Made by a program: the position numbers and the translations under genes
Notes under the pieces: generated by a model
What the model saw: the letters and a program-made list of their open reading frames with translations, nothing else
Database searches by the model: none
Told to the model about the DNA's origin: nothing
Origin: Escherichia coli
GTDB taxonomy: Bacteria; Pseudomonadota; Gammaproteobacteria; Enterobacterales; Enterobacteriaceae
NCBI RefSeq assembly: GCF_045037415.1
Contig: NZ_CP173439.1
Length of the DNA stretch: 64,000 bases
Strand: one strand, 5' to 3'
Shown: positions 1,125 through 30,878 of the stretch, piece after piece
Layout: each line of letters starts with the position of its first letter
Position numbering within the stretch: the first letter of the stretch is position 1

Positions 1125-1650
<526 letters not shown>

Positions 1651-3573: not shown

Positions 3574-3921
3574 ATGAAAGCGGATATATCTGTAAAGTAT
3601 TTTCTGAAAAGCCTGATACCAGGTTTCATTATTCTTACAGTTTTTTATCTGGGATGGAAAGATAACCAGGAAAATTCAAGAATGTTTTATGCGTTCATCG
3701 GATGCATTATCAGCTCCATTACTTTTCCTTTTTCAATGAAGATAATACAGAAAATGGTAATAAGGTTTACAGGGAAAGAAGTCTGGCAAAAAGACTTCTT
3801 TACTAATCCAGTTGGCGGAAGCTTAACTGTAATATTTGAATTATTCTGTTTCGTTATATCAGTTCCTGTAGTTGCCATTTACTTAATATTTATATTCTGC
3901 AAAACCCTTTCAGGAAAATGA
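3574..3921 (+). CDS. small polytopic membrane protein, unknown function (first gene of the AT-rich island)
   Basis: 115-aa ORF with about three hydrophobic segments; AT-rich codon usage like the lasso genes downstream. Confidence 0.5.
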   Translation: MKADISVKYFLKSLIPGFIILTVFYLGWKDNQENSRMFYAFIGCIISSITFPFSMKIIQKMVIRFTGKEVWQKDFFTNPVGGSLTVIFELFCFVISVPVVAIYLIFIFCKTLSGK

Positions 3922-4456
3922 AAGGGCATCATTATATGTCAGATACCAATAAGTTTATTGTTCTGCTCAATAAACTTATCATTAACAAGCGCACTCACAG
4001 CAGCCATAATAATTGCAAAACCCAGAATACCTACAAGGGTCCCCGGCATGACGGAAAACGTCCATGCGGTAACAGATGAAGTAGCTCTTCCTGCTGCCAG
4101 TGATTCAAGTTTTACAAAAAATGGACGCCAGTTATCTGTCCAGACAACCTTACCAAACTCAGTGCTCCAGTCAGCAAAATCGTTGCCTTCAGTACACCGT
4201 GTTTTCTCTTCAGCTCTCTTCTGGTTGATGTCGGCAAGCTGGCAACAAAAATTCTCTTTTTACGTCAAGAACGTCATTTGCATGTTTTTACTCATTTGTT
4301 CTGGCACTGACGTTATTTCTCGCCGAATTTACCGCAGATTCAGCAAAGGTGATTTTATTGTAACTGCAACACCTACCAGATGACGGAAAACGGGTGAACG
4401 GATTAGAGTACGATTTTTCCATTTCGTGATCTTCACCTCAGAACCCCACCATTGAT

Positions 4457-4475
4457 GATAAAAATGATTATCATT
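4457..4475 (+). promoter_or_regulatory. Fur-box-like sequence next to the precursor promoter
   Basis: gataaaaatgattatcatt matches about 13 of 19 positions of the Fur consensus GATAATGATAATCATTATC; inner tgattatcatt is one mismatch from tgataatcatt. Confidence 0.3.
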
Positions 4476-4479
4476 CGCA

Positions 4480-4507
4480 TTGACACTTTGAAATAAGTAG
4501 TTATATT
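4480..4507 (+). promoter_or_regulatory. putative sigma-70 promoter of the lasso precursor gene
   Basis: TTGACA (4480..4485), 16-bp spacer, TATATT (4502..4507); about 70 bp upstream of the precursor ATG, which has an AAGGA Shine-Dalgarno. Confidence 0.35.
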
Positions 4508-4576
4508 TTTCATGGTTATTGAGCAATTGGTAACCAATGTAGGTTGTAGGTGTTTCATTTTCATTAAGGAATATGT

Positions 4577-4765
4577 ATGAAAAAACAATCTAAAGAAGTG
4601 AAAACCTCTGGCTCTGAACATCGTGAAATTATGATAGAAATTGATGCCTCTAAATCGACGAACGGTACCGGTGGAGGCTCCATCATTGAAGGGTCATACA
4701 CTGTCTATCGCTGCGATGGCGGAAGTGTCCCCTCGCGTCCTTTTGGCCCCCCATTCTGTCCTTAA
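4577..4765 (+). CDS. putative lasso-peptide precursor (A gene)
   Basis: 62-aa ORF MKKQSKEVKTSGSEHREIMIEIDASKSTNGTGGGSIIEGSYTVYRCDGGSVPSRPFGPPFCP; good SD; immediately upstream of the cyclase; Thr near the leader end, Gly-rich core start, Glu at a ring-forming distance, aromatic and Cys residues in the tail. Confidence 0.6.
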   Translation: MKKQSKEVKTSGSEHREIMIEIDASKSTNGTGGGSIIEGSYTVYRCDGGSVPSRPFGPPFCP

Positions 4766-4892
4766 ATTTAAAGGCTGGTCATGATTGAAATATTCACTTC
4801 TCTCAAACGAAAGCAATGAATCCGATAATACAGGTATATTCGATAAAAAGGACGTCTTTTGTGGCGTCCTTACCTTAAGGAGATTATTACGA

Positions 4893-6281
4893 ATGTCTTT
4901 GGGGGATAAATTTACATCTGGATACCGTGGGATTAATGCCTTCAATAGTGGCGTGATAAAACTTCTTGTTGCCAGAGAAAATGACTGGATTGAAGAAAAA
5001 CTTAGTGCCATTTTAACTCAATCACCTCGTATTGATTTCGAACCACTCATTGCGAGTATAGTTTTTGGGCGTACTGAGGGGAAAACTTCATTATTTAAAA
5101 ATGTGGAATGTATTGTTCCTGGTTGCAGTTTTAAAATTGACCACACGCACAATGGTGCATCCGTAAGTGAATATATTGACTGGAATGCAATTTCATATAA
5201 GACATTACCGCACGACCCGGCAGAGATTCTTTTTCAGTCTGTATCTGAAGTCGTCAACAGAAATCAAGGCGGATACTTTGTTGTGCGCCTGTCTGGTGGC
5301 ATGGACTCTACTGGCATTCTTCTCTCACTAATGGAGGCAGTTGATGTAAGCAGAATTATTGCCATAACTTATCGGTACCTTATGGGGACAAGCAATCAAG
5401 ATGAAGTATCAGCAAGGTATTTATGTAAAATATTTGGAATCAGGCAAATAATAATTGATTTTGAACCTCATTCATTATTTCATAGGCTTCCTTCACCAGT
5501 GCCTCCTGTTCTAAATATGAGAACAATAAATTTTAAAGTTTATGAAGAGGAAAGAAAGCGTATCGGAAGTATCTGTGGAGATAATTATACCCTGTTTGAT
5601 GGGCATGGGGGGGACCATGTATTTTGTGAGAAAATCCCGTTTGGAATAATAAAAGAGTTATTTTTCCATGGGAGTTTGTTAACCTCATGCCGTAAGTTAT
5701 TACAGATAGCTCGCCTTCATGGCATAAATATGAAAGATGTCTTATTAATGCATACTAATAGTATGCATTATCTTATAACTGAAGCACAGTGTTATTTTTC
5801 CAAAGATGTTATAAAAAACCTTCACTATGACAGAAAAACAGTAAGTGAAGAAAGAAAGTCAGCCCTTCAGGAGGCTATTCTTGATAATGGGACGAGCCTG
5901 ACGCTGAGTCTTACGGAAAACGATATATTCCCTTTTACAGACCAGAGGATGATAGGCTATGGTCTGAAACTCAGAGTTGAGGAGTCATTTGATACTACAT
6001 CAAAACGATTTCAATACAGAAAAGCGATTAATGACAGATATAAATTTGTATTTACCAGAAAAGATAAGGGGCATATAACAGGTGCATATCAGTCGGCCCT
6101 TAGTGTTAATAAGGACCGTGTTATTAATCTTCTGCGCCATGGGCAGTTCGCGACACACGGTTTGTTAAACTTGGAGGGGGTAGAGCGAGCAATAGAAACA
6201 AGTTCTCATGGCATCGGTGGAGTCAGTTTTATTCTTATGAAATTAATTGCTGCAGAACTTATCTTTGAAGGATATTTATAA
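4893..6281 (+). CDS. lasso-peptide cyclase (asparagine synthetase B-like, C protein)
   Basis: ORF 4785..6281 with the likely start at ATG 4893 (AAGGAG SD); PP-loop ATP pyrophosphatase motif VVRLSGGMDSTGIL; size like McjC; stop overlaps the next start (TAATG). Confidence 0.75.
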   Translation: MSLGDKFTSGYRGINAFNSGVIKLLVARENDWIEEKLSAILTQSPRIDFEPLIASIVFGRTEGKTSLFKNVECIVPGCSFKIDHTHNGASVSEYIDWNAISYKTLPHDPAEILFQSVSEVVNRNQGGYFVVRLSGGMDSTGILLSLMEAVDVSRIIAITYRYLMGTSNQDEVSARYLCKIFGIRQIIIDFEPHSLFHRLPSPVPPVLNMRTINFKVYEEERKRIGSICGDNYTLFDGHGGDHVFCEKIPFGIIKELFFHGSLLTSCRKLLQIARLHGINMKDVLLMHTNSMHYLITEAQCYFSKDVIKNLHYDRKTVSEERKSALQEAILDNGTSLTLSLTENDIFPFTDQRMIGYGLKLRVEESFDTTSKRFQYRKAINDRYKFVFTRKDKGHITGAYQSALSVNKDRVINLLRHGQFATHGLLNLEGVERAIETSSHGIGGVSFILMKLIAAELIFEGYL

Positions 6282-6964
6282 TGACTTCATTCTACTTTAA
6301 GCCGAATATACATCATGTCAATATTAATAATGAAATAACTATCCTTGATGAGATATCTGATCGTTATATCCTTCTTTCAGAAAAGCAATCAATTCTCTTA
6401 AAAGAGTATATGAGTGATGGTTCTCATAATTATGTCGGTGATACAATGAACCTGGAAGGTATAATTTCTAAGGAGTCGGGTACTCCTTTGGCAAAGAGTA
6501 CTCCGTCTCCTCAGGGGGTTGGTATATTGACCTGGAACAGTTATGTCAGCACTCGGTTGGGTATTGCCAGTTTTTTTTATATCTCTGAAGCAATAATGAG
6601 AATGATTCTTGTCCGAAAACGTCTCCAGTCAAAGGGTTTTCACCATTGCCTTGAGCATTGTCGTTGTGCGCTTAGCCAGAAGAGTTTTCCGTACATTTCC
6701 CTGAAAGATAAATTAATTATTGGGCAGAAGTTGAGCCAGAGTATTAAAATTGCGGCACCGTTTATCCCGGGCAAGGTTAAATGCCTTGAGTTTTCACTTG
6801 TTTTGTTCGACATGTTAGTGTCAAGAAAAATCAGTCCCACATTATTTATTGGATTCCAGCGCTATGATTTTCTTTCTCATGCATGGCTGGAAATTGATAA
6901 TGAAGTGGTTGCAGACCAAGATAACCTGAAAACAAAACTTACACCAATAATTAGAGTGGGATAA
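6281..6964 (+). CDS. lasso-peptide leader peptidase (transglutaminase-like Cys protease, B protein)
   Basis: 227 aa; candidate Cys...His...Asp triad (KVKCLEF ... LSHAWLEIDNE) with spacing like McjB; translationally coupled on both sides. Confidence 0.7.
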   Translation: MTSFYFKPNIHHVNINNEITILDEISDRYILLSEKQSILLKEYMSDGSHNYVGDTMNLEGIISKESGTPLAKSTPSPQGVGILTWNSYVSTRLGIASFFYISEAIMRMILVRKRLQSKGFHHCLEHCRCALSQKSFPYISLKDKLIIGQKLSQSIKIAAPFIPGKVKCLEFSLVLFDMLVSRKISPTLFIGFQRYDFLSHAWLEIDNEVVADQDNLKTKLTPIIRVG

Positions 6965-8688
6965 TGAAAATAAAAAATGTCATTTGTGAATTAAAATCAG
7001 GGGCAAGTGCTTACTCTTCGGCCTACAAGCTCATACGCTCACTGTATCCCGCATTCACATTTTCTTTTATCGGTGTGTCCATTCTCTTTATTCTGGCTTC
7101 GGTTCTTGGTGCATTACTTCCTTATCTGCTCAAAAAGACAGCGGAGGCGTATACTTTCTCTGAAGGGATATTATCTGCATTTTTCCTGATCACAATGACC
7201 TACGCCGTCAGCTGGACAGTGACCGAAGTACTGAAGAATATCAGAGGCATTTTTTCTGCGGGAATTCTGGCACAAGCAGATGCAGCACTAACCAGTAACA
7301 CGATGGAGATTTTACTTTCTATTAGTTTCCGGAAACAAAAGGAATTTGAGCCGGCGGTCCTGGCTGCAAATATTGATCGTGGCGCGCAATCATTCAGTGC
7401 GCTGACATTATCTGTTTTCTGGACACTACTCCCAATTACTGTAGAAATCAGTATGGCTGTTTATTTTCTTTATCAGAGTCTGGGTTTTACTTATTCACTT
7501 ATTTTCTCAATTTCTGTTATAGGTATGATTTTTCTTGCCTTCAGCATAGCGATCTTTAGTCGTCATATCCATACCGATATAATGAATACTCAGAATGGGG
7601 TGTATTCTTATACGATTGAGCGACTTGCCATGCCGTTGGATATCCGAATTAATTCAGCTCATGCAAAAGAAAGAGTTCTTCGCCAGGAAATTCTTAATCA
7701 GTATGTTAATACAATTAAGCTGACCAATAAAAAAATGGGCTTTTTACTGTCACTACAGGCAGTAGCTGTAGGCGTATTGCTTGCTATATCCGTACTGGTT
7801 CTGGTTTTTTTTAAAAAAGCGTCTCATATTGGAACTGGTGACTTTATTATGATTGTGGGCTATATTAGCATGCTAACATTTCAGTTGCGCACAATAGCCG
7901 GAGCCAGCATTGACATTCAACGCCAGATTGTGTACCTGAAAATTCTTCTGGAATATAACAGTATGCATCCCGAAGGGGTTATCCCTGATACAGTAAGCTC
8001 CCGCAGCACTGAGCGTATTTTTGATGTGCGTAATCTTGGAGCTTTTGCTGACGGCAGACTCCTCTTTAATAATGTGAGCTTCAGGATCCATGAAGGTGAA
8101 ATGTTTGCACTTTCTGCGCCTTCAGGTTTTGGTAAATCCACAATTCTGCAATATTTACTCGGTCTTGATACCCCAACTGAGGGCGATATTTATTTCCGAG
8201 GATACCGGATTAACACAGAGTTGAGTGCGTCTATCCTGGAGGACGTTGCTGTTGTGCCTCAAAAAGCCGTTCTGGTGCAGGGAACTATTCGTGATAATAT
8301 TCTGTATGGAACCGATGACATTCTTCCCGATGATGAACTGTTTTGCATCCTGAATTCATTGGGGTTAATTAAAGAGGACTGCGGAGAACATTTCCTTGCT
8401 TTCCTAGACCGGGATATTAATCCTCTGGGTAGTGGTTTGAGTGGTGGAGAGATCCAGCGATTATGCATAGCCCGCGCCCTAGCCCGTAAGAAAAAGATTA
8501 TCGTACTTGATGAACCCACGGCCTCTATTGGCGAAGAACTCGCGATAAAGATCATTACCTATATCCGGCAGCATTGCCCTACCGTTATTATTACAACTCA
8601 TAATCCACGAATTCTGGAGCTCGCCGATCATTTTTTTGATGGTATGTCAAAGTCTTGCGTCATTGCTGGAGAAGGCAGAGACCAATAA
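6964..8688 (+). CDS. ABC exporter (fused permease-ATPase, McjD-like export/immunity, D protein)
   Basis: 574 aa; N-terminal multi-TM domain; Walker A APSGFGKST, signature LSGGEIQR, Walker B IIVLDEPT. Confidence 0.85.
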   Translation: MKIKNVICELKSGASAYSSAYKLIRSLYPAFTFSFIGVSILFILASVLGALLPYLLKKTAEAYTFSEGILSAFFLITMTYAVSWTVTEVLKNIRGIFSAGILAQADAALTSNTMEILLSISFRKQKEFEPAVLAANIDRGAQSFSALTLSVFWTLLPITVEISMAVYFLYQSLGFTYSLIFSISVIGMIFLAFSIAIFSRHIHTDIMNTQNGVYSYTIERLAMPLDIRINSAHAKERVLRQEILNQYVNTIKLTNKKMGFLLSLQAVAVGVLLAISVLVLVFFKKASHIGTGDFIMIVGYISMLTFQLRTIAGASIDIQRQIVYLKILLEYNSMHPEGVIPDTVSSRSTERIFDVRNLGAFADGRLLFNNVSFRIHEGEMFALSAPSGFGKSTILQYLLGLDTPTEGDIYFRGYRINTELSASILEDVAVVPQKAVLVQGTIRDNILYGTDDILPDDELFCILNSLGLIKEDCGEHFLAFLDRDINPLGSGLSGGEIQRLCIARALARKKKIIVLDEPTASIGEELAIKIITYIRQHCPTVIITTHNPRILELADHFFDGMSKSCVIAGEGRDQ

Positions 8689-8712
8689 ACCACACACGTT
8701 AATTCATTTATA

Positions 8713-8980
8713 TCTAATCGGGGTTGTACGCCGGAAACGCCGAAATTTCCGATACAGCGAATTTGTTGATTTTTGAAGCATGTTTGGCAGGTTTTGACGT
8801 GTACGTTTATGGTGCAGTAAGTGAGAATTTATTCGTACCAGCCATATGATACGTTACGGGCAGTGATTTTTCGCGCTAGACAGCTATTTCTTTGCTGTCC
8901 GGTTAACTGTGGTCTTACGTACAGGTTGCCGAGCATAAAATTTGTGCCTCCCGGAAATTTCGGCGTTTCCGGCGTACAAC
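8713..8980. mobile_element. miniature inverted-repeat element (~268 bp) with 32-bp perfect terminal IRs beginning GGGG
   Basis: GGGGTTGTACGCCGGAAACGCCGAAATTTCCG at 8713..8744 and its exact reverse complement at 8949..8980; no ORF between. Confidence 0.45.
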
Positions 8981-9034
8981 CCCAAATAAATTCAATTAAT
9001 TACCTAAACAAGGTGAGACTTTTAGAGGAAATGA

Positions 9035-9125
9035 GCGCGGAACCCCTCTTTCCACTGGTGGCGCAGGAAAGTTAACCGGCTGCCACCATGGGATGATGTG
9101 TAAACCGTGCAGGCATGTTTTTACG
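9035..9125. repeat. Inverted-repeat copy B (partner of 3075..3165)
   Basis: Contains an inverted duplicate of the 3' end of the 3116..3463 gene (reads ...SFHWWRRKVNRLPPWDDV*) plus its downstream sequence. Confidence 0.6.
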
Positions 9126-9137
9126 GGATGATGCTTT

Positions 9138-9169
9138 CATTTGGATATAGAGAATTATTGTACGTTCAG
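9138..9169. repeat. partial copy of a 38-bp Tn3-family-like terminal repeat (tttggatatagagaattattgtac...)
   Basis: Shares the core tttggatat.ga.aattattgtac with copies at 32001, 42145 and 56465. Confidence 0.4.
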
Positions 9170-9465
9170 CACAACAAACTTAATACTAATGTATGCATAC
9201 ATTAGCATTAACTACACATTTAAGACATTAACCATTAATAATGTGTATTATTACACAATATTACCCATCAGGAAGCACGTCGTCAGTATTAGAAAAAAAT
9301 TACAAACGCTCGCCGCAGGCCCAGCGACCGAACGTTAGTGAGCGAGGAAGCGGAAGAGTGTCAGGTCTGAATTGAGCACATACGCCAGAAATTATATAGT
9401 AAAAAGATATATGATTTTTACATTGCTCAGTAGATTGTAAAATGCTGCTGATTGGATATCTATAT

Positions 9466-9852
9466 CTAATTTAGAATAATGGCTTTAAGATGGTCAGAAA
9501 CCATCTTCCAGTTATATTCTCCTGTTGCAGCATTCAAAGCGATAATTTGCATTTCATCAAACGAAATACGTGAACTAATAATATGTACACCATTCCGTTT
9601 TAAAAAAACCTGTGCAACAAACAAGGCTGTTCGCTTATTTGCATCGTTGAAAATGTGACCACGAGCAATAGCAACTAAATACACGGCAGCCAGATCCATA
9701 ATATCTGTCACACCTTCATAATGATACATGTTCAAAACACGATGAATGATCGCGTCAGCGCGACCGGGTTCTGGCATACCCGCCACGCCACCATCACGCG
9801 AAATCAAGCGGTCATGAAACTCAATCACTTCCTGTGAACTAACGAATTTCAT
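9466..9852 (-). CDS. doc: Doc toxin (Fic/Doc family)
   Basis: 128 aa with the Doc motif HIFNDANKRTA; overall similar to P1 Doc as recalled; overlaps the phd stop. Confidence 0.8.
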   Translation of the reverse strand: MKFVSSQEVIEFHDRLISRDGGVAGMPEPGRADAIIHRVLNMYHYEGVTDIMDLAAVYLVAIARGHIFNDANKRTALFVAQVFLKRNGVHIISSRISFDEMQIIALNAATGEYNWKMVSDHLKAIILN

Positions 9853-10073
9853 CGCTTAGAAAGCTCCGTATAGGCCGTCCCATGACTTTGCATGATCTCA
9901 GCAAACTCAGCATCAAGAGCCGCTTTACGGTATCGTTCAAAAGCGTCTTTATCAACTAGTACAGCCGCGCCACCTTTACGGCGCTGAATCTCAACAGGCT
10001 GATTTTCATCAACCGCCAGCTCGAGCAACGAGGCCAGGTTATCGCGAGCATGGCTATAGTTACATGTAAACAT
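9849..10073 (-). CDS. phd: Phd antitoxin (Phd/YefM family)
   Basis: From internal Met: MFTCNYSHARDNLASLLELAVDENQPVEIQRRKGGAAVLVDKDAFERYRKAALDAEFAEI..., close to P1 Phd. Confidence 0.75.
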   Translation of the reverse strand: MFTCNYSHARDNLASLLELAVDENQPVEIQRRKGGAAVLVDKDAFERYRKAALDAEFAEIMQSHGTAYTELSKR

Positions 10074-10090
10074 AGTGCTTCCTCTTTGAG

Positions 10091-10111
10091 TTGTACAATT
10101 AAATTGTACAA
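10091..10111. promoter_or_regulatory. putative phd-doc operator: two TTGTACAA palindromes
   Basis: ttgtacaattaaattgtacaa about 20 bp upstream of the phd start; each 8-mer is self-complementary. Confidence 0.35.
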
Positions 10112-10260
10112 CAGTTCTGTTCAATATGAAATCACCGTAGTAAGGGGGGCGTGCCCATTTCCTCTAAAAGTCTCACCTTTATTATGTAATTAATTGAGTT
10201 TATTTAGAAAATGTTGCAATTTTAGCATCATTTTTTATTGTTCTTTTTAACCTGAAGTAG

Positions 10261-10297
10261 GGGGCCGCTTGGAATTCGGAAATTTTCCCACGCTAAG
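10261..10297. repeat. Tn21/Tn1721-subgroup-like 38-bp terminal IR remnant abutting IS21 copy 1
   Basis: GGGGCCGCTTGGAATTCGGAAATTTTCCCACGCTAAG resembles the Tn1721 IR as recalled (GGGG...AATTCGGAAA...ACGCTAAG). Confidence 0.4.
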
Positions 10298-10357
10298 TGT
10301 CAACGCCACGATGTTTGACCGTTATTTGCCATTTTCATGCCCGCTAAGATACTTTCG

Positions 10358-12327
<1,970 letters not shown>

Positions 12328-13153
12328 GTTGATGTCCTTTCTGGTGTGAGAACCTTAAGGAAACAACATGTTGGGTGGAGCGGACAATCCAAATGGTGAA
12401 TTACCGTCTTATATCACTGGCGCTGACACGGCGTAGAACCCCGAGAAAACGAGAGCATGAAAACCCCCAGGACAGTCACTGAATGGGGGACCAGCAGCGG
12501 TAAAATAACCGACATAATTTCATAATGATGCCTCCGTTAGTTATGAAGGTTTGCGGGCTGACTATACTGTTGGTGCCTGAGCAGAACTGAAGGATTGAGC
12601 GTGTTTCTGATGGAGAGTTCCACAGGTATCCACGAGATTGATTATGCCACCAGAAACACGCTCGGATGCGTTTTAACGTTACTTTTACTGGCAGGCAAGG
12701 TTTCTTTGTTTTATTTGTATTCTGACTCTCAGAATGACTCTGTTCGCTCCATAAATATTAAAATTATCAGGTAGAAGAACTCTCTTTTGTACAACTTAAC
12801 TGTGTCTTTATGGAAATGTTGTAAAGGTTCTTTTCTTTAGCTGTATCGTATTTAAATATACTTTTCTGTAAGTGGAATCTTTGCATAAGATAATAAAAAA
12901 CAGCAAATTATATTAATGGTTATGATATCCTGGGAACACCTGATTAACTAATAAGTTATTTTAATAAAAACATCTGCACTGGCAAATAATTGTACCCCCT
13001 TCAATAGGAATATTCTTATTTAATGGCCTTGTTTATATTCTAAAAATAAAACTGAGAAACTCATCATATATTTGGTAAGAAAACGCACCGGTGAACACTA
13101 TCATGAGGCTATACTGCACTTCCTCAAATTGGGATATTATGATGCATTGATTC

Positions 13154-13903
13154 ATGAAAAAGAGTATACGCAATTACAACGCATTATGGATTGTCTGGTT
13201 ATTATGGGTTACAGCTATATTATATTTTATGCTAGGCAGTCATCGTGATGGTTTTCCCAATGATGTTATTGTTATACATATAATATATCTGCTATCATTA
13301 ATAATGATTGTGTTTTTCATAATAAAAAAGGTTTATGCAATTACTATGTTTAAAAGTAAGAAAAAGCCAGTATCAACACCACAAAGTTCTTCACAGAATT
13401 TAACTGAAGTTGAACACTCTCCGGAGTTACCTTCTTTATCCGGGACGCTTTGTACCACAAACTTACCAGGATCACTAAAGGAAATGAAAGATTGTTTTAT
13501 TTCGAATGACACTTCATTTAACGGAACTTTCAAATGCGGTGGTAATATAATTATTGAGGGGCATGTTGAGGGCGATGTTATTTGTGATAATCTTGTTAAA
13601 ATTGAGAGTGGGGGGTACATCAGAGGGGAGGTTCGTGGTCAGCAAGTGCTGATCAATGGAAAAGTCGAAGGCAAATGTTATGCTGCTAGATTGTCTGTCT
13701 TGTCTAAAGGCATTATGTATGGAGATATTTTTTCTGACGAAATTTCAATTGAAAAAGGGGGGAGTTTTATCGGGTGTTCACAATTAATGGATCCGTCATC
13801 AACAAAAATAGAACATGCAATTGAGGAGAACGATACTGATAGCGAGTTATTTATAACTGATATTCAGTCAACGCTTATACCTGAAGATAACTCGATAAAG
13901 TAA
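13154..13903 (+). CDS. membrane-anchored bactofilin-domain protein
   Basis: 249 aa; two N-terminal hydrophobic helices, then bactofilin-like beta-helix repeats (GGNIIIEGHVEGDVICDNLVKIESGGYIRGEVRGQQVLINGKVEGK...IEKGGSFIG). Confidence 0.5.
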   Translation: MKKSIRNYNALWIVWLLWVTAILYFMLGSHRDGFPNDVIVIHIIYLLSLIMIVFFIIKKVYAITMFKSKKKPVSTPQSSSQNLTEVEHSPELPSLSGTLCTTNLPGSLKEMKDCFISNDTSFNGTFKCGGNIIIEGHVEGDVICDNLVKIESGGYIRGEVRGQQVLINGKVEGKCYAARLSVLSKGIMYGDIFSDEISIEKGGSFIGCSQLMDPSSTKIEHAIEENDTDSELFITDIQSTLIPEDNSIK

Positions 13904-14056
13904 ACATCGGCTTCATAAATTATCGGTATTCATTCGATAGTTTATAGGAGGAAAATACAGGGTTTATATCCCTGTATCTATTCTTATCTGAATTGTCAGT
14001 GTTGCCATATCAAATACGGATATAATAAACAGGAACTTACGAAAACAATAACTGAT

Positions 14057-14434
14057 ATGACTTCACGGCTATTTCTGAAAGCTAATATCAGGAGTCTTAG
14101 TCAAATGAATTTATACTTAAGATTAAAACAGGTGGATTTATCATTAGGTAAATGGATTGATGGAAAAGACAAGATTAGTCAATTAATAATACTTAACACG
14201 ATGAGGATCCTGTTATTTACTGTTTGCATTTATATCATTGGGTTCGTTGATTTTAATTTCTACCATATAGCTGAAAATATTATATCTAATATATACAGAA
14301 TAGATATTTACATTGTTCATGGCATAATGATAATGCCACTATTAGCTATATCTGCATTCTTCATGTTTAGTGTTTCATTTATATTCTATTATTTATTAAA
14401 GAGATGTTTTATGTTGTGCTATCCAAAAAAATAA
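14057..14434 (+). CDS. hypothetical small membrane protein
   Basis: 125-aa AT-rich ORF with hydrophobic segments; no recognisable family. Confidence 0.3.
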   Translation: MTSRLFLKANIRSLSQMNLYLRLKQVDLSLGKWIDGKDKISQLIILNTMRILLFTVCIYIIGFVDFNFYHIAENIISNIYRIDIYIVHGIMIMPLLAISAFFMFSVSFIFYYLLKRCFMLCYPKK

Positions 14435-14588
14435 TCTGTCAGCAGGCCGCAATAGTTTCTGTCGTATTTGAAACTTGATGGTATGCCTGCGATCAATGCC
14501 AACCCCTGCCAGTTTTTTCGGCACAGGAGCTACCCGGTGAAATGCAATAGCACTCAGCTTACGTGAGAGCTATTGCATATAACATTAT

Positions 14589-15191
14589 TTAAAATGAATA
14601 GCGTACTTTTAAGTTCAGCTCATTATCGATATTGTATTTACCGCCAAATGAACGCTCATAGTCGATGCCAACACGGGTGTTTTTGCCAAGCTCAAATGCA
14701 AGGCGAGCTCCAACAAGTACTCGGCTGTCATGCCCGAATTTGACGGTTGTCTCGTTATAAGCATCACTGAGAATAGTTTGATTATCATTCAATATATCAA
14801 ACTGGTAACTTGTGTCTATCTTTGCTACTATTGACCAGTCCTTACCAGTGAGTTTTCTGGCAAAATCAACACCAGTACGACCGACAAGTACATTATAATC
14901 CTTGTTATCAATAACGGTTTGATTAGCCAGATTTTGTTTACTACCTCCAATCCGTCCATAAGTAAGTTCAAACTGAGACTCAATAAACATTTCATTACTC
15001 AGTCCCCAGCGATATCCTATTTCAGCGTCTGCATAATATGAATTTGTGCTGAAGTTCTCTTTGTCTCTTGGACTTAAATAGCTATAAACGTTTGTTGAAT
15101 GGATGTATTTAGCGATAAAATCAGTATAAAAACCGTTATCAAAGAAGATGGACGTATACCCACCCAGACCATAGCTTTTAGTATCGCCATA
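14589..15191 (-). pseudogene. autotransporter beta-barrel domain, 3' fragment (ends ...LNLKVRYSF)
   Basis: Translation continues upstream of the annotated Met without a start and is cut by the IS911 end at 15192; C-terminal aromatic residue typical of outer-membrane beta-barrels; 5' part found at 43915..44477. Confidence 0.6.
15067..15191. repeat. 125-bp direct repeat copy A (partner 43915..44039), internal to the split autotransporter gene
   Basis: Identical stretch cttggacttaaatagctataaacg...agtatcgccata found at both positions. Confidence 0.75.
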
Positions 15192-15508
15192 TGAAGTGGC
15201 ACACTGAATTTGGCCACCTGAACAGAGGTGATATGCTCACCTCAGAACAACACAGGTGCTCCAATGAAAAAAAGAAATTTCAGCGCAGAGTTTAAACGCG
15301 AATCCGCTCAACTGGTTGTTGACCAGAACTACACGGTGGCAGATGCCGCCAAAGCTATGGATATCGGCCTTTCCACAATGACAAGATGGGTCAAACAACT
15401 GCGTGATGAGCGTCAGGGCAAAACACCAAAAGCCTCTCCGATAACACCAGAACAAATCGAAATACGTGAGCTGAGGAAAAAGCTACAACGCATTGAAATG
15501 GAGAATGA
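15192..15508 (+). mobile_element. IS911 left-end fragment (IS3 family), cut by IS30
   Basis: Begins TGAAGTGGCACACTG; OrfA reads [53 protein letters not shown]...IEMENEIL, then diverges into the IS30 end. Confidence 0.6.
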
Positions 15509-15545
15509 AATATTAATTCAATTGGTCAACGCAACAGTTATGTGA
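15264..15545 (+). pseudogene. IS911 OrfA, C-terminally truncated/altered
   Basis: About 93 OrfA-like residues, then a foreign tail ([11 protein letters not shown]) read from IS30 sequence. Confidence 0.6.
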
Positions 15546-16233
15546 AAACATGGGGTTGCGGAGGTTTTTTGAATGAGACGAACATTTACAGCAGAGGAAA
15601 AAGCCTCTGTTTTTGAACTATGGAAGAACGGAACAGGCTTCAGTGAAATAGCGAATATCCTGGGTTCAAAACCCGGAACGATCTTCACTATGTTAAGGGA
15701 TACTGGCGGCATAAAACCCCATGAGCGTAAGCGGGCTGTAGCTCACCTGACACTGTCTGAGCGCGAGGAGATACGAGCTGGTTTGTCAGCCAACATAAGC
15801 ATTCGTGCGATAGCTACTGCGCTGAATCGCAGTCCTTCGACGATCTCACGTGAAGTTCAGCGTAATCGGGGCAGACGCTATTACAAAGCTGTTGATGCTA
15901 ATAACCGAGCCAACAGAATGGCGAAAAGGCCAAAACCGTGCTTACTGGATCAAAATTTACCATTGCGAAAGCTTGTTCTGGAAAAGCTGGAGATGAAATG
16001 GTCTCCAGAGCAAATATCAGGATGGTTAAGGCGAACAAAACCACGTCAAAAAACGCTGCGAATATCACCTGAGACAATTTATAAAACGCTGTACTTTCGT
16101 AGCCGTGAAGCGCTACACCACCTGAATATACAGCATCTGCGACGGTCGCATAGCCTTCGCCATGGCAGGCGTCATACCCGCAAAGGCGAAAGAGGTACGA
16201 TTAACATAGTGAACGGAACACCAATTCACCGAG
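15509..16233 (+). mobile_element. IS30 fragment (left end and 5' two-thirds of the transposase)
   Basis: ATTCAATTGGTCAACGCAACAGTTATGTG end sequence; transposase matches IS30 InsI for ~220 aa, then diverges after ...NGTPIH. Confidence 0.7.
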
Positions 16234-16283
16234 TAGGCAGCCTGGCGGCTGCGGCTTGTCATGGCCTGAAATTACCGTTATAA
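15573..16283 (+). pseudogene. IS30 transposase, 3'-truncated
   Basis: MRRTFTAEEKASVFELWKNGTGFSEIANILGSKPGTIFTMLRDTGGIKPHERKRAVAHLTLSEREEIRAGLS... matches IS30 transposase N-terminus; tail is junction-derived. Confidence 0.75.
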
Positions 16284-16317
16284 AAACAGACAATATCATT
16301 GTCTTTCAGGTAGTTAT

Positions 16318-16683
16318 ATGTCCCGTTCAGCTAAACCCCGTAAACGAAAACCTGCCCCTCAAAGAAGCAAACTTCCCCGCTATGTCGTGAAGCTTCACGA
16401 CGATGACTTCTTTGACGAAGAAGACGCAGAAGCTCTGCGCTTTGATAATTTTGACGATGCCGTTGAGTGCTGCGCAGACCTGAATATTCCCTTCTTTGTG
16501 GATGCCGGAAACAAAAAGCTGGTCTTCTGGTTTGTACGTGTTGATGACGAAGGGTATCCTGAAATAGCCCGCTGCACGGAGCGGGAGTTTGCGACCATTC
16601 TTGCCGGTATCAGCGCCGGCGGCATGTACTGCCCGGAGTGTGGCACGGTTCACTGGCCGGACGGAGTCCCCCCGCCCTTCTGA
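16318..16683 (+). CDS. IS91 ORF121
   Basis: 121-aa ORF immediately upstream of and overlapping the IS91-family transposase. Confidence 0.65.
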   Translation: MSRSAKPRKRKPAPQRSKLPRYVVKLHDDDFFDEEDAEALRFDNFDDAVECCADLNIPFFVDAGNKKLVFWFVRVDDEGYPEIARCTEREFATILAGISAGGMYCPECGTVHWPDGVPPPF

Positions 16684-17870
16684 TGCTTCCCCGTTTTGCC
16701 GACATTTTTCAGCAGGGAAACCGCTGGCTAAACTGGCTGGAGAAACAACCGGAAGGTTCAGTGCGTCCGGTAGTCATTGAGTCTGTGACAAAAATCATGG
16801 CCTGCGGGACCACGCTGATGGGGTACACACAGTGGTGCTGTTCATCTCCGGACTGCAGCCACATAAAAAAGGTCTGCTTCCGGTGTAAAAGTCGCTCCTG
16901 CCCGCACTGCGGAGTGAAGGCTGGCGCACAGTGGATACAGTATCTGCTGAATCTGGTTCCCGACTGTCCGTGGCAGCATATTGTGTTCACACTTCCCTGC
17001 CAGTACTGGTCCCTGGTGTTCCACAACCGGTGGTTACTGGCAGAGATGAGCCGCATTGCTGCGGATGTGATACAGGAAATCTGCCGCCAGGCAGATGTGG
17101 TGCCGGGAATATTCACGGTCATCCACACATGGGGACGTGACCAGCAGTGGCATCCGCACATTCACCTGTCGACAACGACCGGCGGCGTGACATCAGACCA
17201 CACCTGGAAAAACCTTCATTTTTACGCCCGTAAGGTGATGAGTATGTGGCGTTACCGGATAACGCGGTTACTGTCACGGAAATATCCGGACCTGGTGATA
17301 CCGGATGCGCTGGCAGCAGAAGGAAGCAGTAAACGGGACTGGAATCGCTTCCTGGACAGTCATTACCGGCGGGGCTGGAATGTCAACGTATCCCGGGTGA
17401 TGGATAACGCCACACATGTGGCGGTGTACTTCGGCTCTTACCTGAAAAAACCGCCGGTGCCGATGAGCCGTCTGGAGCACTATGCTGGTCAGGATGAAAT
17501 TGGTCTGCGTTACAACAGTCACCGGACAAAACGGGAAGAATACCTGGTGATGAGTGGTGATGAGTTTATGGAAAGGTTCTCCTGGCATGTGGCGGATAAG
17601 GGGTTCCATATGGTGAGGTACTACGGTTTCCTGAGTCCGGTGAAGCGCCGGTTACTGGAAGATGTTGTGTACGTCATAACGGAGACGGTGAGAAAGACGG
17701 CGATGCAAATCAGGTGGAGAGGGATGTATCAGCGGTTACTGAAGGTTGACCCGCTGAAGTGCATCCTGTGCGGAGGTCAGATGCGTTTTACGGGGCTGAA
17801 GCGGGGCTACCGTCTGACAGAGCTGGTCCTGATGCATGAGCCACTGGCGCAACAGCGGGTGTGCGGCTGA
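16638..17870 (+). CDS. tnpA: IS91-family HUH (Y2) transposase
   Basis: 410 aa; N-terminal Cys-rich zinc-binding region (CFRCKSRSCPHCG), HUH-type motif HPHIHLS, C-terminal CILCGG. Confidence 0.85.
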   Translation: MWHGSLAGRSPPALLMLPRFADIFQQGNRWLNWLEKQPEGSVRPVVIESVTKIMACGTTLMGYTQWCCSSPDCSHIKKVCFRCKSRSCPHCGVKAGAQWIQYLLNLVPDCPWQHIVFTLPCQYWSLVFHNRWLLAEMSRIAADVIQEICRQADVVPGIFTVIHTWGRDQQWHPHIHLSTTTGGVTSDHTWKNLHFYARKVMSMWRYRITRLLSRKYPDLVIPDALAAEGSSKRDWNRFLDSHYRRGWNVNVSRVMDNATHVAVYFGSYLKKPPVPMSRLEHYAGQDEIGLRYNSHRTKREEYLVMSGDEFMERFSWHVADKGFHMVRYYGFLSPVKRRLLEDVVYVITETVRKTAMQIRWRGMYQRLLKVDPLKCILCGGQMRFTGLKRGYRLTELVLMHEPLAQQRVCG

Positions 17871-18063
17871 GAGCCGCATCGGAGAAGTTGCGTCCATTTT
17901 CAGGGGAATGGGGTAAAAAACCATCAGTGATATACAGTATCAATCGATAAGATCCATTTAATTGACGGCGGTGCACTCATGGCACGCAGGCAGTGTTGAA
18001 TAAACATCCGTTTTTGGGTGTTTTTTTAATCTTTTTGGGATTTAAATTCCTATCGATGAACAG

Positions 18064-18330
18064 AGATGAGGACCTTCCATCATGGGCTTCGAGGCGGGCA
18101 CGCCACGCTTTTTCAGCCAGTTCATTATCGAACAGGCTTGCCAGATTCAGTAGCAGCGGGTAACGAAAGGGGGTCCAGTAGGCAACCCTGGGCACTGCAG
18201 GATTCATCCCCTGATCGAAGAACGAAATAATGGCGTGATCCCGTTTAACGACCTGCCAGACATCAAACCGTATCCGGTGCTTCTTCTGCAGGACAAGCAG
18301 CGTATCAACCACCTCATCAAGGCGGTGCAT
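18064..18330 (-). pseudogene. N-terminal fragment of an unknown gene truncated by IS91
   Basis: ORF 17977..18330 runs into IS91 sequence; only ~89 codons lie outside the IS. Confidence 0.3.
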
Positions 18331-18361
18331 GCCAAGCTCTGCGGCGTGCAGACGCTGTACT

Positions 18362-18385
18362 TGTCAACGCCACGATCTTTGACCG
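18362..18385. repeat. solo IS21-like terminal repeat remnant
   Basis: TGTCAACGCCACGATCTTTGACCG matches the first 23 bp of the IS21-like copies with one mismatch, then diverges. Confidence 0.4.
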
Positions 18386-19117
18386 TCTTATATCGACAGA
18401 GTTATCCGGCATGGTGTCAATCCGTTCACAATTTTTCCATCGGAGCAGCCTACCACCGGTGATAACCAGACTTTGCCTGTAGTTTGTATACACAATCCCT
18501 GGCATTGAAACACGCATATGAGGTGTACTTCGGAATATGACCGTGCGCTCAGGAAGTACGGCAGATTCCGTCAAAAATTACCTGTAAAGACAGACTTCAG
18601 AAAAAACAGTGCTCGCCGCAGACCGGTGACCGGGCGAAGCCCGCGAACCGGCGAGGAAGCGCAATATATCTGTAGTTACAGTGAGCAGGTACGCCCTGAA
18701 GCCCTTATAAGCGGTTGTGTATGCTGTTTCCCTGGGATGATTTATCCACATATCCGGAGGCTCGATCCAGTAAACAGATCCATGAATGATCAACAAAGGA
18801 TCCATTAAAGATCCCCATATCGCTGCAAACCTTGTCACTCATGGGCCGGGACCACGATCACATAAGCTGTGGCATGTTACTGATAAACAGTAACATGCTA
18901 ATGATAAGCTGTATTCAGTAATCCATATACTGAAGTAAGTTAATGACATAAACTATGGTCAGTACGCCAGACTCAGTTGTTAAATACAGGCTGCAGGTTT
19001 TTCTTCAGTCAGTTAGCGGAGTTCTGACACACGATTTTCTGTTTATTCTTTTACTGTCCACAGGCTGGAGGCTTTCTGGAAAACGAAAATTCAGACATCA
19101 AAAAACTGTTCGGCGAG

Positions 19118-20095
19118 GTGGATAAGTCGTCCGGTGAGCTGGTGACACTGACACCAAACAATAACAACACCGTACAACCTGTGGCGCTGATGCGTCTGGG
19201 CGTCTTTGTACCTACCCTTAAGTCACTGAAGAACAGTAAAAAAAATACACTGTCACGCACCGATGCCACGGAAGAACTGACGCGTCTTTCTCTGGCCCGT
19301 GCAGAAGGATTCGATAAGGTTGAGATCACCGGCCCCCGCCTGGATATGGATAACGATTTCAAGACCTGGGTGGGGATCATTCATTCCTTTGCCCGCCATA
19401 ACGTAATTGGTGACAAAGTGGAACTGCCTTTTGTCGAGTTTGCAAAACTGTGTGGTATACCTTCAAGCCAGTCATCCCGCAGGCTGCGTGAGCGTATCAG
19501 CCCTTCCCTGAAGCGCATTGCCGGTACCGTGATTTCGTTTTCCCGTACCGATGAGAAGCACACCCGGGAATATATCACCCATCTGGTACAGTCAGCCTAC
19601 TACGATACTGAGCGGGATATTGTGCAGTTACAGGCCGATCCCCGCCTGTTTGAACTGTACCAGTTTGACAGAAAAGTCCTTCTCCAGCTTAAGGCGATTA
19701 ATGCCCTGAAGCGACGGGAGTCCGCCCAGGCACTCTACACCTTTATAGAGAGCCTGCCCCGGGATCCGGCACCGATATCGCTGGCGCGGCTGCGTGCACG
19801 CCTCAATCTGAAGTCTCCTGTATTTTCCCAGAACCAGACGGTCAGACGGGCAATGGAGCAGTTGCGCGAGATTGGATATCTTGATTACACGGAGATCCAG
19901 CGGGGGCGGACAAAATTCTTCTGTATTCACTACCGGCGTCCCCGGTTAAAAGCGCCGAATGATGAGAGTAAGGAAAATCCGTTGCCACCTTCACCTGCGG
20001 AAAAAGTCAGTCCGGAGATGGCGGAGAAGCTTGCCCTGCTTGAGAAACTGGGCATCACGCTGGATGACCTGGAAAAACTCTTCAAATCCCGCTGA
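19118..20095 (+). CDS. repA: RepFIB replication initiator RepA
   Basis: 325 aa, [30 protein letters not shown]..., matches the RepFIB (P307-type) RepA as recalled; flanked by iteron-like repeats. Confidence 0.9.
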
Positions 20096-20099
20096 ATAT

Positions 20100-20370
20100 A
20101 AACTGTAGTCAGTGAAGAGCGCTCCTTTACTGACTACAGCTTATATTAACTGGTGCAGTGAGTGGTCTGCTCACTGCAGTTTATATTCTGTTCCCTGCAG
20201 TGCTGTCTGTAGCTGAGCTGCCATCTGCCTGTCCCTTACGTAAGTGATCCCGTAACCTGATGCTGAGGCATTGCTCCCTTCATAAAACATGACTTACTCA
20301 CTACAGCTTATATACATGCTCCAGCTTATGTTATGTCTGTTCTGCTGACCACAGCTTATATAAGGAAGCG
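20100..20370. repeat. RepFIB iteron region (repeated ACTACAGCTTATAT-type motifs)
   Basis: At least four direct copies and one inverted copy of (c/t)actacagcttatat(a/t) within 270 bp downstream of repA. Confidence 0.6.
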
Positions 20371-20379
20371 CGTATGCCG

Positions 20380-21120
20380 TCACCTCAGGGGAGGCAGTGT
20401 ACGCAGGATCTCCGCAGCATCCCGCCCGTCACCTGTGAAAGGCACTGCCAGCGTGGCAGCCATATCCAGCGCAAAAACTCTGGTATAAACCTCCATCGAA
20501 CGTGGATCCCTGTGACCAGCCAGTGCCTGGATGACTTTCCGGGGCTGGCGGTGATAGAGCATGTGCATGATATAGCTGTGCCGGAAGGTATGTGGTGTGA
20601 CCGGAATCGAAAAGTGAACCCCGTCTGCTTCGGCCCGTCTGACAGCCTGCTTCAGCCAGTTGCGCATGGTTTCGTCGGTCACGGCCCATAATAGTTCACG
20701 ACGCCGGGGCCGGGTGGTGATCATCCAGCTTTCCATCTGCCTGACATAGCTTATATCTGTCAGCGGAACTAGGCGGACTTCATCTTTTGGCGGGCGTCCG
20801 CGTCGCGCACGCACTTTTTCGGACAGGATCCGCACAAACGGTCTTACTCCATCCAGGTCAAATGATTCCGGCGTCAGCATCCGGGCTTCGCCAATACGCA
20901 TTCCGGTATTCCAGAGGGTGGCGAACAGCATATGGTGACGCTGATCCGGCATATAGAAAAGAAGGGCACTCACTTCCGGGGCCAGCAGGTAGGCCGGTGT
21001 GCCCCCCGTGGAAGTGGCCATTCTTCTCAGGGAGAGCGCTGTTGCAAAATCCACCCCCGGCGCAATGGGTAACAGGGAGACGCGTTCTGGTGAATTCTGC
21101 AGGGGAATGACATTGTTCAT
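20380..21120 (-). CDS. int: tyrosine site-specific recombinase (integrase family) next to RepFIB
   Basis: 246 aa; C-terminal catalytic region HTFRHSY...[14 protein letters not shown]; paralogous to ResD at 318..1124. Confidence 0.8.
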
Positions 21121-21790
21121 GAGTTATTTTTCACGTAGCACACGCACTGTTTATGGATACAGGTATTCTGACCTGAACGCCCGGATCCTTCCACGACAAT
21201 AAATCGCAGCGCGCGGATCCTTTTGTTTGATTATCACGCATTATTGCGGGTAAAACCAAATGCGTAAAGGCGCATTTTGCCGCAGGGATCCCGTCTTAAG
21301 CCAGTCATGGTGCGGGCTGAGAGCTGGTTTACCGTTTTTGGGAGAATTGGGGTAATGCCAGGAACAGGCAGATACGGAGAAAAATCCTGCAGATAACCTT
21401 CTACGACAACTGAAGGTGTCTGACGCCATATTCTTAGCTACTTCTCAGTTTTAAGGCGGCTTAGTCACAACATAAGGTTATGCATAATAAGCATATTTTA
21501 TTATGTTATGGTCTTGTTCATGCATGAACTGTTATCTATTCAGTCACTTTTAACGTTTTATATCATACTGCATATGACACAATCATCTTCTATATTCAGA
21601 TTAAAAATATTATGACGACGATCAAATAAATTTAGTGAAATCATTACTTACAATAATATGTTTATGACATAATTTATCAAAAATATCCGACAACCTTCCT
21701 GAAAGGTTACTGCGAGGAGTCAAACAATGAAGTGTAATAACTTATTCAGTCTTTTTTATGCTCTCTTTATAGCAAAACCAGGAAGTTAAA

Positions 21791-22960: not shown

Positions 22961-23038
22961 AAGGCCGCTCGTGCGACTGTATTAGATAGTAATGCGGTAT
23001 GGAAAAATAGTGATGGCAAGATGAACTTGACTTGGCTA

Positions 23039-23290
<252 letters not shown>

Positions 23291-23840
23291 TTATTTCCGA
23301 ACCTCGCCCTTGCCTGCGTAACCATCCGTCGCCCCCATCCTGTTTTCAGACTGCGGAAAAAGGCAAGTTTTTATCCCCCCACAGAGATTCAATCATATAT
23401 CGCGTGTTTTGGAAGTGACAGTTCTTATTCCTGAGAATACTGCATGTGCAACACACTCGGCATCCATCGATACCACTTTTATCTCCAATAGGCAGGATAA
23501 AAAACAAGACTGTGAATTAAAGTAATCGGCAAATGAATGAGTTAGAAGATACTGAAAATGAATCAAGGACTAACCCCATAGGGAATGAAAATAATAAAAG
23601 AACATCTTGTTTTTATTTTAATGAATGAGCATGTTCTTTTATATTAATAACAAAACCTATCATTAAACAAAATGATGAATGACAGAGTTTTCTTTAAAAT
23701 AGCTTATATTATCTTACAGTAGCTGACATAGTGCAATATAAATTATCAGCTATGCCATAACGGCTTAGCAGTGTCTAAGCGTAAGAATCAAGACTTCAGT
23801 TACAGTTTACTCACGGTAGAAATATTTAATGGATTTGCCC

Positions 23841-24746: not shown

Positions 24747-25069
24747 TTTTTTGCTCGCCCATATTCAACGGCTTCTTTAAGGAGTTCATTTTCCATCGTT
24801 TTTTTGCCGAGCAGACGCTGGAGTTCTTTAATCTGCTTCATGGCGGCAGCAAGTTCAGAGGCAGGAACGACCTGTTCTCCGGCAGCCACAGCAGTAAGAC
24901 TTCCCTCCTGGTATTGCTTACGCCAGAGAAATAGCTGGCTGGCTGCCACACCATGTTGCCGGGCAACAAGGGAGACCGTCATTCCCGGTTCAAAGCTCTG
25001 CTGAACGATAGCGATCTTTTCCTGTGTAGTACGCCGTCTGCGTTTCTCCGGCCCTAAGACATCAATCAT
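24704..25069 (-). CDS. insC: IS2 InsC (OrfA)
   Basis: [41 protein letters not shown]... from the internal Met of ORF 24704..25114. Confidence 0.9.
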
Positions 25070-27321: not shown

Positions 27322-27327
27322 CAAATC

Positions 27328-28119: not shown

Positions 28120-28142
28120 CAATACTATTCCCTGCCCTGAAA

Positions 28143-28908: not shown

Positions 28909-30878
<1,970 letters not shown>

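Follow-up and report, generated by a model that had tools for sequence, protein, structure and literature searches.

Positions 4577 to 4765 of a 64,000-nucleotide stretch of Escherichia coli DNA (contig NZ_CP173439.1, assembly GCF_045037415.1; hereafter the window) probably encode the precursor of an uncharacterised lasso peptide, which would be made by the products of three co-transcribed genes, C, B and D (4893..8688), carried with the precursor gene A on a mobile plasmid module; from the sequence evidence given below, we give this reading a probability of roughly 0.72. The four genes follow one another as A-C-B-D on the same strand, with the ends of C, B and D overlapping or abutting, and they supply the parts by which lasso biosynthetic gene clusters are recognised: a small precursor with a leader, Thr at position -2 and Gly1, an acidic residue at positions 7-9 of the core, a B2-type peptidase and an AsnB-like C. 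Lasso peptides as a kind of molecule are well known; what appears new is this uncharacterised member, with its predicted class IV pattern and its unusually divergent enzymes. No description of the peptide or its relatives was found in the full-text literature searched with core strings of six members, four RefSeq accessions and lasso and microcin topics, a search that left subscription-only papers and large mining tables outside, so that a RODEO-type listing may exist.

The open reading frame (ORF) at 4577..4765(+) comprises 62 codons and a stop, and its translation is exactly MKKQSKEVKTSGSEHREIMIEIDASKSTNGTGGGSIIEGSYTVYRCDGGSVPSRPFGPPFCP. The frame, the end of the leader, Glu9, Cys17 and Cys32 all stand where a first-pass annotation, made from the letters of the window, had put them. 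Between gene A and its counterpart in a homologous locus at the 80% level (L003), there are 23.5 synonymous and 8.5 non-synonymous differences (dS 0.93, dN 0.06, dN/dS 0.067), leader and core behaving alike, and a ratio of ~0.07 against an 80% homologue points to long-term selection on the peptide; by this measure, gene A is a real gene under strong purifying selection. An avian-pathogenic E. coli (APEC) plasmid with slightly different cluster DNA encodes the identical peptide, the sole difference within the ORF being synonymous. The promoter-like site upstream agrees with the consensus at 11 of 12 positions and is the top site within 4200..9200, as ranked by consensus match alone.

Which features of the precursor, then, has evolution held fixed? 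With the precursor itself as query, the searches returned nothing but E. coli sequences almost identical to it and a single frameshifted variant. Its relatives emerged only when the cyclase, C, was used instead, which recovered homologues from 80% down to ~25% identity. At every locus examined a small ORF lies directly 5' of C in the order A-C-B-D, except at two Aidingimonas loci (L013 and L015, 1700..3300), where no recognisable precursor was found 5' of the C match, an ABC-transporter gene is present and the gene order differs. Fifteen distinct precursors, that of the window included and each directly 5' of a C homologue, were assembled in this way, the sources being Pseudomonas, Cupriavidus, metagenomes and plasmid contigs of enterobacterial type, some of them Salmonella-named; 13 of these precursors were aligned and two more were checked in addition. 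Gly1, Gly5, Glu9 and Gly10 are invariant in all fifteen and no other acidic residue is conserved. At position -2, eleven have Thr and four have Ile, and Ala at -6 is nearly invariant. Lasso precursors as a rule have Thr, and rarely Ile or Val, at -2 and begin their core with a small residue, mostly Gly; Ile is an experimentally validated alternative, the validated case being a phosphorylated lasso peptide system, according to PMC10368454. Invariant Gly1 and Glu9, together with Thr or Ile at -2 across the family, thus support a leader cut between Asn29 and Gly1 (TN|G) and a predicted nine-membered Gly1-Glu9 ring, the first of the two arrangements given in the first pass. With isopeptide and disulfide in place, such a core would have a monoisotopic mass of 3296.50 Da.

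Conservation within the core reaches only to about residue 16 (E-G-x-aromatic-x-V/I-aromatic-R/K), and the shortest core of the family, GNPGGVFLEGTFFVRK, has 16 aa and no Cys. Because conservation stops there and one member ends there, the threaded segment probably lies within residues 10-16 (G-S-Y-T-V-Y-R), with the plugs there too, predicted to be Tyr12 over the ring and Tyr15/Arg16 beneath it, and residues 17-33 would form a long tail, closed by Cys17-Cys32 into a 16-residue loop. The total of 33 residues, rightly called long for a lasso peptide in the first pass, is the length of pandonodin, to which we return below.

The adjoining genes C, B and D form a lasso-type set, so that the annotation of the ORF as a lasso precursor stands. 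Pfam matches to C are weak (Asn_synthase, E 1.5e-4; also QueC and NAD_synthase), and a search of the PDB with its profile returned PP-loop enzymes only. The motifs S134-G-G-x-D138-S139 (PP-loop) and D236-G-H-G-G-D-H242 are nevertheless invariant across sixteen homologues, and the AlphaFold model of C (pLDDT 89.7) is matched full-length by Foldseek to TsnB9, carbapenam synthetase, beta-lactam synthetase and AsnB (E 1e-9 to 1e-6). As modelled, C has the AsnB/beta-lactam-synthetase fold, i.e. that of the enzyme family that includes lasso cyclases. It is 23% identical to McjC of microcin J25 over 309 aa (E 1e-7) and 22% identical to PanC of pandonodin over 468 aa (E 2e-14), and its PP-loop starts at residue 134 versus 199 in McjC, which makes the N-terminal domain of C ~65 residues shorter. 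Among 1.84 billion representative proteins, E<=1e-30 is reached by only 20, a number that includes several fragments, and E 1e-10 by 96, with proteins of 440-530 residues ranking above canonical cyclases of ~590 residues; the clade of C is small, divergent and compact.

Gene B scores 82 bits with the NCBIfam model lasso_biosyn_B2 (NF033537; cut-off 33) and matches Pfam Transglut_core3 (PF13471) at 2.7e-16. Its triad Cys168/His200/Asp212 aligns to that of McjB, Cys168 and His200 being invariant in relatives and Asp212 nearly so. Identity to PanB is 23% in a full-length alignment that takes in the N-terminal 60 residues, and to McjB 37% over only 62 aa. In the AlphaFold model (pLDDT 86.9) residues 10-58 form three strands plus two helices, and the N-terminus is probably a leader-recognition domain; a Pfam PqqD match was looked for in B and not found. 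D matches many ABC exporter models as well as ABC exporters in the PDB, and is 24% identical to McjD over 501 aa (E 2e-25); a PDB search with D gave generic exporters, McjD not being among the top 60. By analogy, D is presumed to be the pump for export and self-immunity. The features of the locus and the cores of the family are collected in Table 1.

Table 1. Features of the A-C-B-D locus in the window, and core peptides of the precursor family grouped by cysteine pattern
Feature	Position	Strand	Description
Promoter-like site	4480..4507	+	TTGACA-16 nt-TATATT, sigma-70-like, ~70 nt 5' of the precursor start
Shine-Dalgarno, gene A	4566..4570	+	AAGGA, 6 nt 5' of the ATG; read from the sequence
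Gene A, precursor	4577..4765	+	62 aa plus stop; RefSeq CDS WP_000744815.1, hypothetical protein
Leader peptide	4577..4663	+	29 aa, MKKQSKEVKTSGSEHREIMIEIDASKSTN; ends Thr28-Asn29; Thr28 at -2, Ala24 at -6
Core peptide	4664..4762	+	33 aa, GTGGGSIIEGSYTVYRCDGGSVPSRPFGPPFCP, by the TN|G cut; Gly1, Gly5, Glu9, Gly10 invariant in relatives
Codon Gly1	4664-4666	+	
Codon Glu9	4688-4690	+	
Codon Cys17	4712-4714	+	
Codon Cys32	4757-4759	+	
Stem-loop, A-C spacer	4849..4870	+	8-bp stem (AGGACGTC / GGCGTCCT)
Shine-Dalgarno, gene C	4877-4882	+	AAGGAG, 3' of the stem-loop
Gene C	4893..6281	+	462 aa; candidate compact ATP-dependent macrolactam synthetase (lasso cyclase)
Gene B	6281..6964	+	227 aa; candidate fused leader peptidase, transglutaminase-like Cys168-His200-Asp212 core
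Gene D	6964..8688	+	574 aa; half-size ABC exporter, transmembrane plus nucleotide-binding domain
Core, tail-tail Cys pair			GTGGGSIIEGSYTVYRCDGGSVPSRPFGPPFCP; this window
Cores, tail-tail Cys pair			GTGGGSILEGSYTVYRCDGGVIPSRPFGPPFCP, GTGGGAILEGSYSVYMCAGGGVPIRPFGPPFCS, GNGSGSLVEGRRRVYRCSSSSGIGFSVC, GWGGGAIVEGRYAVYRCQMTRC, GYSGGQIFEGKYMVWRAGCSNCTPIKP
Core, tail-tail Cys pair			GSGGGAIMEGSYCVYHAIGFDFAGSGTCSR; Salmonella-named source
Core, tail-tail Cys pair			GSGGGSIIEGSWVVWRSPGCGVPLPCWG; Pseudomonas
Core, tail-tail Cys pair			GTGGGSIVEGRYAVYKCPYGLISPRC; Cupriavidus
Cores, ring-tail pair (Cys6 + Cys19)			GYGGGCVLEGKYSVFRPDCGPRMPR, GYGGGCVLEGKYFIFRPDCGGPRIPNPR, GYSGGCIMEGKYFVYRPDCGGPRIPNH; Pseudomonas and relatives
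Cores without Cys			GNPGGVFLEGTFFVRK, GSGGGAILEGSYSVYRDMSPYFYRSRSRK, GTGGGPIMEGNYSVHRPKNPFDPFHHFH

The cysteines follow a strict rule, in that twelve of the fifteen cores hold two, three hold none and none holds just one. Such an all-or-nothing distribution argues for a disulfide, here tail to tail between Cys17 and Cys32, and lends indirect support to the bridge that the first pass had considered possible. The E. coli core has exactly these two cysteines, both outside ring residues 1-9, so that a Cys17-Cys32 disulfide of the class IV pattern is likely. Across the alignment, one homologous family would thereby display three patterns, namely tail-tail (class IV), ring-tail Cys6-Cys19 (class III) and none (class II). 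The ring-tail pattern is seen in a Pseudomonas branch (L010 2513..2668, L011 2644..2808, L019 ~1267..1431 and L018), whose precursors have Ile at -2, a Cys6 within the ring and Cys19. These two positions, with Gly1 and the acidic residue 9, coincide with those of the Cys6-Cys19 bridge and the Gly1-Asp9 ring of BI-32169 (class III). That peptide is actinobacterial, is similar to the Pseudomonas branch in nothing beyond ring and Cys positions, and resembles these relatives, not the E. coli peptide; its gene cluster has been reported as unidentified. Pseudomonassin was also considered as a relative and rejected (~1.74 kDa), and metanodin was set aside, since its 'unprecedented ring' refers to a start at Asn1, which is irrelevant here. 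One precursor copy, on a 1216-bp ENA contig (P0004), is frameshifted after Asp18, which turns its tail into …YRCDAEVSPRVLLAPHSVLKFKGWS and removes Cys32; the shift probably reflects an error in sequencing or the decay of this copy.

Could a lasso peptide be made here with its cysteines reduced, or linked otherwise than Cys17 to Cys32, or with a role outside antibacterial action, such as signalling or the inhibition of a receptor or enzyme? Three family members do without Cys altogether, so that a disulfide is not essential to the scaffold; reviews list many lasso peptides without known antibacterial activity, and nothing in the core resembles the RNA-polymerase-binding Glu8-Tyr9 and the C-terminal Tyr-Gly of microcin J25. 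The count of strictly zero or two Cys in 15 cores speaks against the first part of this proposal, and the dedicated ABC exporter and the plasmid carriage beside colicin and toxin-antitoxin genes, which fit a secreted toxin, against the second. We consider it unlikely on the whole, and yet the best placed of the competing explanations.

Among known systems, the closest architecture is that of pandonodin, a class IV peptide encoded by panABCD of Pandoraea norimbergensis. It too is proteobacterial, with a core of 33 residues, Thr at -2, a Gly1-to-Glu ring followed directly by Gly, a short loop and a long Pro-rich tail with two Cys, and it too comes with a D exporter and no dedicated oxidoreductase, its B being fused as that of the window probably is. 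Pandonodin, which is cited as the largest experimentally verified lasso peptide, has a tail of 18 residues after its short loop, and its tail-tail disulfide forms when the peptide is made in E. coli; apart from A-D, no gene is common to the class IV clusters (LP2006, pandonodin, felipeptins). Because these clusters have no such gene in common and pandonodin is oxidised in E. coli, a disulfide formed without a dedicated enzyme is plausible here as well. The differences are nonetheless considerable. There is no detectable core similarity, and a PDB search with the GTGGGSIIEGSYTVYRCDGGSVPSRPFGPPFCP core returned nothing meaningful. The Cys pair is 5 apart in pandonodin versus 15 in the E. coli core, and the pandonodin ring, judged by the length of its gene and the printed PanA sequence, which is ambiguous by one Ala, is apparently Gly1-Glu8 versus Glu9 here. 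Its gene order is A-B-C-D versus A-C-B-D, PanC has 585 aa versus 462 aa for C, and the identities are those given above (22% for C, 23% for B).

Microcin J25 (mcjABCD) offers a different kind of parallel, being likewise encoded by an E. coli conjugative-plasmid cluster of similar rarity. Shared as well are C and D, a B that is fused (here probably so), a ring closed between Gly1 and a Glu, and Thr at position -2. Its mcjA is, however, divergently transcribed, its ring has eight residues, its core 21 aa and no Cys, and its Tyr9 and C-terminal Phe-Tyr-Gly are absent from the two-Cys core described here; its enzymes are as distant as those of pandonodin (C 23%, B 37% over only 62 aa, D 24%). Klebsidin and citrocin, from Enterobacterales, have Ile-Ile before the ring-closing Glu of an 8-residue ring, an aromatic residue after that Glu, and 19-aa cores without Cys. 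It was the ring region with its Ile-Ile pair that had suggested kinship with these two in the first pass, and the origin in Enterobacterales is shared too. The suggestion is not supported by the comparison of cores: the hydrophobic pair before Glu9 varies across the family (II, IL, IM, LV, VL, IV, IF, FL), the ring has nine residues and not eight, and Gly after Glu is invariant. With Glu9, Gly10, a C-terminus of FCP, and 23% and 24% identity to McjC and McjD (microcin J25 being the member of this group whose enzymes were compared), the E. coli peptide falls outside the microcin J25/klebsidin/citrocin group.

How might the pathway operate? Gene A would be transcribed from the promoter at about 4480-4507, and the hairpin in the A-C spacer would probably make the A message exceed the CBD message. 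The N-terminal domain of B would bind the leader and B would cut after Asn29, with Thr28 at -2, at the site indicated by family conservation. C would then adenylate the Glu9 side chain and join it to the amine of Gly1 around the tail, as expected from the chemistry of its enzyme family, yielding the nine-residue ring with residues 10-16 threaded and sterically locked and residues 17-33 left as a long tail. D would export the peptide, after which Cys17 and Cys32, by the zero-or-two rule, would oxidise to close the 16-residue tail loop. In its weakest step, which is drawn from context, the scheme would most likely have the product act as a class I microcin, a bacteriocin of narrow spectrum encoded on a plasmid, against which D protects the producer. 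A secreted bacteriocin is suggested by plasmid carriage, by the exporter and by what lies nearby, namely a colicin remnant and genes for toxin-antitoxin pairs; and a predicted 3.3 kDa, within the limit of 5 kDa for the group, plasmid encoding in E. coli and the presence of exporter D agree structurally with class I microcins.

Several observations weigh against this picture. C falls far below the cut-offs of the curated NCBI lasso-cyclase models (NF033561, 57 bits versus 300; NF033535, 19 bits versus 525). Foldseek gave no significant match for B, the hits to TbiB1 and lasso B1 leader complexes having probabilities of 0.8-0.9 but weak E values of ~0.1-0.3. The A-C hairpin has no T-run after it, and the whole spacer folds no better than its shuffles (z -0.6); for these two reasons, a role in attenuation or stabilisation, setting the A:CBD ratio, can be put forward only as a suggestion. 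A strong hairpin of unrelated sequence occupies the A-C spacer of four homologues as well (L003, L004, L007, L009), and an Rfam scan detected no RNA family near the lasso cluster. Finally, several E. coli plasmids (e.g. pEco118UIb and relatives) carry frameshifted or insertion sequence (IS)-interrupted copies of the cluster, from which it follows that selection for production is not universal.

These damaged copies lead to the question of whether the present plasmid carries the cluster as a passenger, silent or in decay, from which no mature peptide would arise under natural conditions. In some E. coli plasmids (L002, NZ_CP032516.1, 3494..5565; NZ_CP103975.1), C and B are each split into two ORFs, the fragment of split C being mis-annotated as 7-cyano-7-deazaguanine synthase, and one copy of the cluster is cut by IS5; such copies look like decaying ones, alongside intact ones. 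Besides these splits and the IS5 interruption, the rarity of the module and the IS elements and gene remnants that flank it fit a passenger. Of 5,426 complete E. coli genomes, 26 have the precursor gene, in each case on a plasmid, as counted by matches to the 431-bp segment that holds promoter, precursor and spacer (4470..4900). A figure of 366 genomes was rejected as precursor prevalence, because that segment matches just 26. PLSDB has the full-length module in 23 plasmids versus 43 for mcjA. Across E. coli plasmids the 4.4-kb module is 99.7-100% identical, and E. coli from humans, poultry and the environment carry it on conjugative plasmids. Against the passenger view stand the four intact ORFs of the window with their plausible expression signals, the identical peptide across E. 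coli lineages with differing DNA, and the dN/dS of 0.07 versus the 80% homologue, which speaks for long-term selection. We therefore regard a silent passenger as improbable.

The surroundings of the module were inspected as well. Directly 5' of the cluster, 3574..4229 takes in two neighbours on opposite strands: an intact 115-aa gene, for which the identical RefSeq region gives 'colicin E1 family microcin immunity protein', and a fragment of 96 aa that is annotated 'colicin-like pore-forming protein'. The pair has the look of an immunity gene orphaned beside what is left of a colicin. On one side the cluster is flanked by the toxin-antitoxin pair phd/doc and by IS21 (istAB), and on the other by ccdAB and an integrase; the regions concerned are 9466..9852(-) and ~10358..12330(-) of the window and L001 1726..2251. 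Its relatives adjoin ccdAB, parDE or tacAT-like modules. In the APEC strain the module, with few substitutions, sits in different flanks, Tn3 and ISL3 remnants being found on the left instead. From these differing flanks, the A-C-B-D block behaves as a movable cassette. Further along, 9000..33000 of the window is mosaic IncF-type plasmid DNA whose pieces are common to thousands of enterobacterial plasmids, with IS3 and IS21 elements, a RepB-type initiator and a gene for a TonB-dependent haem/haemoglobin receptor, and an Rfam ALIL pseudoknot (RF01497, 116 bits), an IS3-family programmed-frameshift element, lies at 42939..43055(+).

The window sequence taken alone would permit another leader cut, after Thr31 (NGT|GGGSIIE), which the first pass had listed as its alternative and which would give a 31-residue peptide of 3138.43 Da with a seven-membered Gly-Glu ring. 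Rings of this size have a precedent in the xanthomonins, with Gly1-Glu7; xanthomonin I is given as a class II example in a review. Across the family, the residue that would be the first of such a core is Gly, Pro or Ser, and Pro, found in L012 (GN|PGGVFLE), is a poor nucleophile; the would-be -1 is T, S, N, Y or W, and the would-be -2 is the invariant Gly. Thr or Ile is conserved instead two residues before that invariant Gly, just as the lasso Thr(-2) rule predicts, and a seven-residue ring is thus very improbable beside the Gly1-Glu9 ring. The chance that the substrate is instead some other small ORF in 4380..4900 is practically negligible. Program-called ORFs do overlap this stretch (4641..4784(+) and 4694..5011(-)), but conservation 5' of the C homologues, from the 80% level to that of 25% identity, is confined to the 4577 frame, which is also the only one with the Thr-x-Gly...Glu lasso signature and in which purifying selection acts.

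Beyond the precursor assignment, a bolder reading may be offered tentatively, with the odds somewhat against it as a whole. The E. coli peptide would be secreted and active as a lasso microcin, its target or its route of uptake would differ from that of microcin J25, and its family would combine a constant Gly1-Glu9 ring and short locked loop with a switching disulfide topology (none, ring-tail or tail-tail) and a previously unrecognised clade of compact cyclases. Microcin J25 and its apparent homologue microcin Y are counted as the lasso-type microcins in a 2022 review, and only three reported cases of class IV (LP2006, pandonodin and felipeptins) are listed in a review of that year. If the reading proposed here is true, E. 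coli would have, besides microcin J25, a second candidate for a microcin of the lasso type, and one that differs greatly from it in structure, with 33 residues, a nine-residue ring and a disulfide-closed tail; the peptide would join the small class IV and tie with pandonodin as the largest verified lasso peptide. The case also points to an annotation gap, for in RefSeq the precursor is 'hypothetical', and the names given to the cyclase are 'asparagine synthase-related', 'hypothetical' and, where the copy is frameshifted, 'QueC', a mislabel. Given its carriage on conjugative plasmids and its relatives on Salmonella-named and plasmid-like contigs, the module may influence competition among gut Enterobacteriaceae. 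With a shared ring and loop, three disulfide patterns and a short cyclase, the family offers a compact system in which to study the role of the cyclase N-terminal domain and the tolerance for cargo in the tail; and if the topology does switch as suggested, the disulfide-based lasso classes would be interchangeable decorations on one scaffold and not separate lineages.

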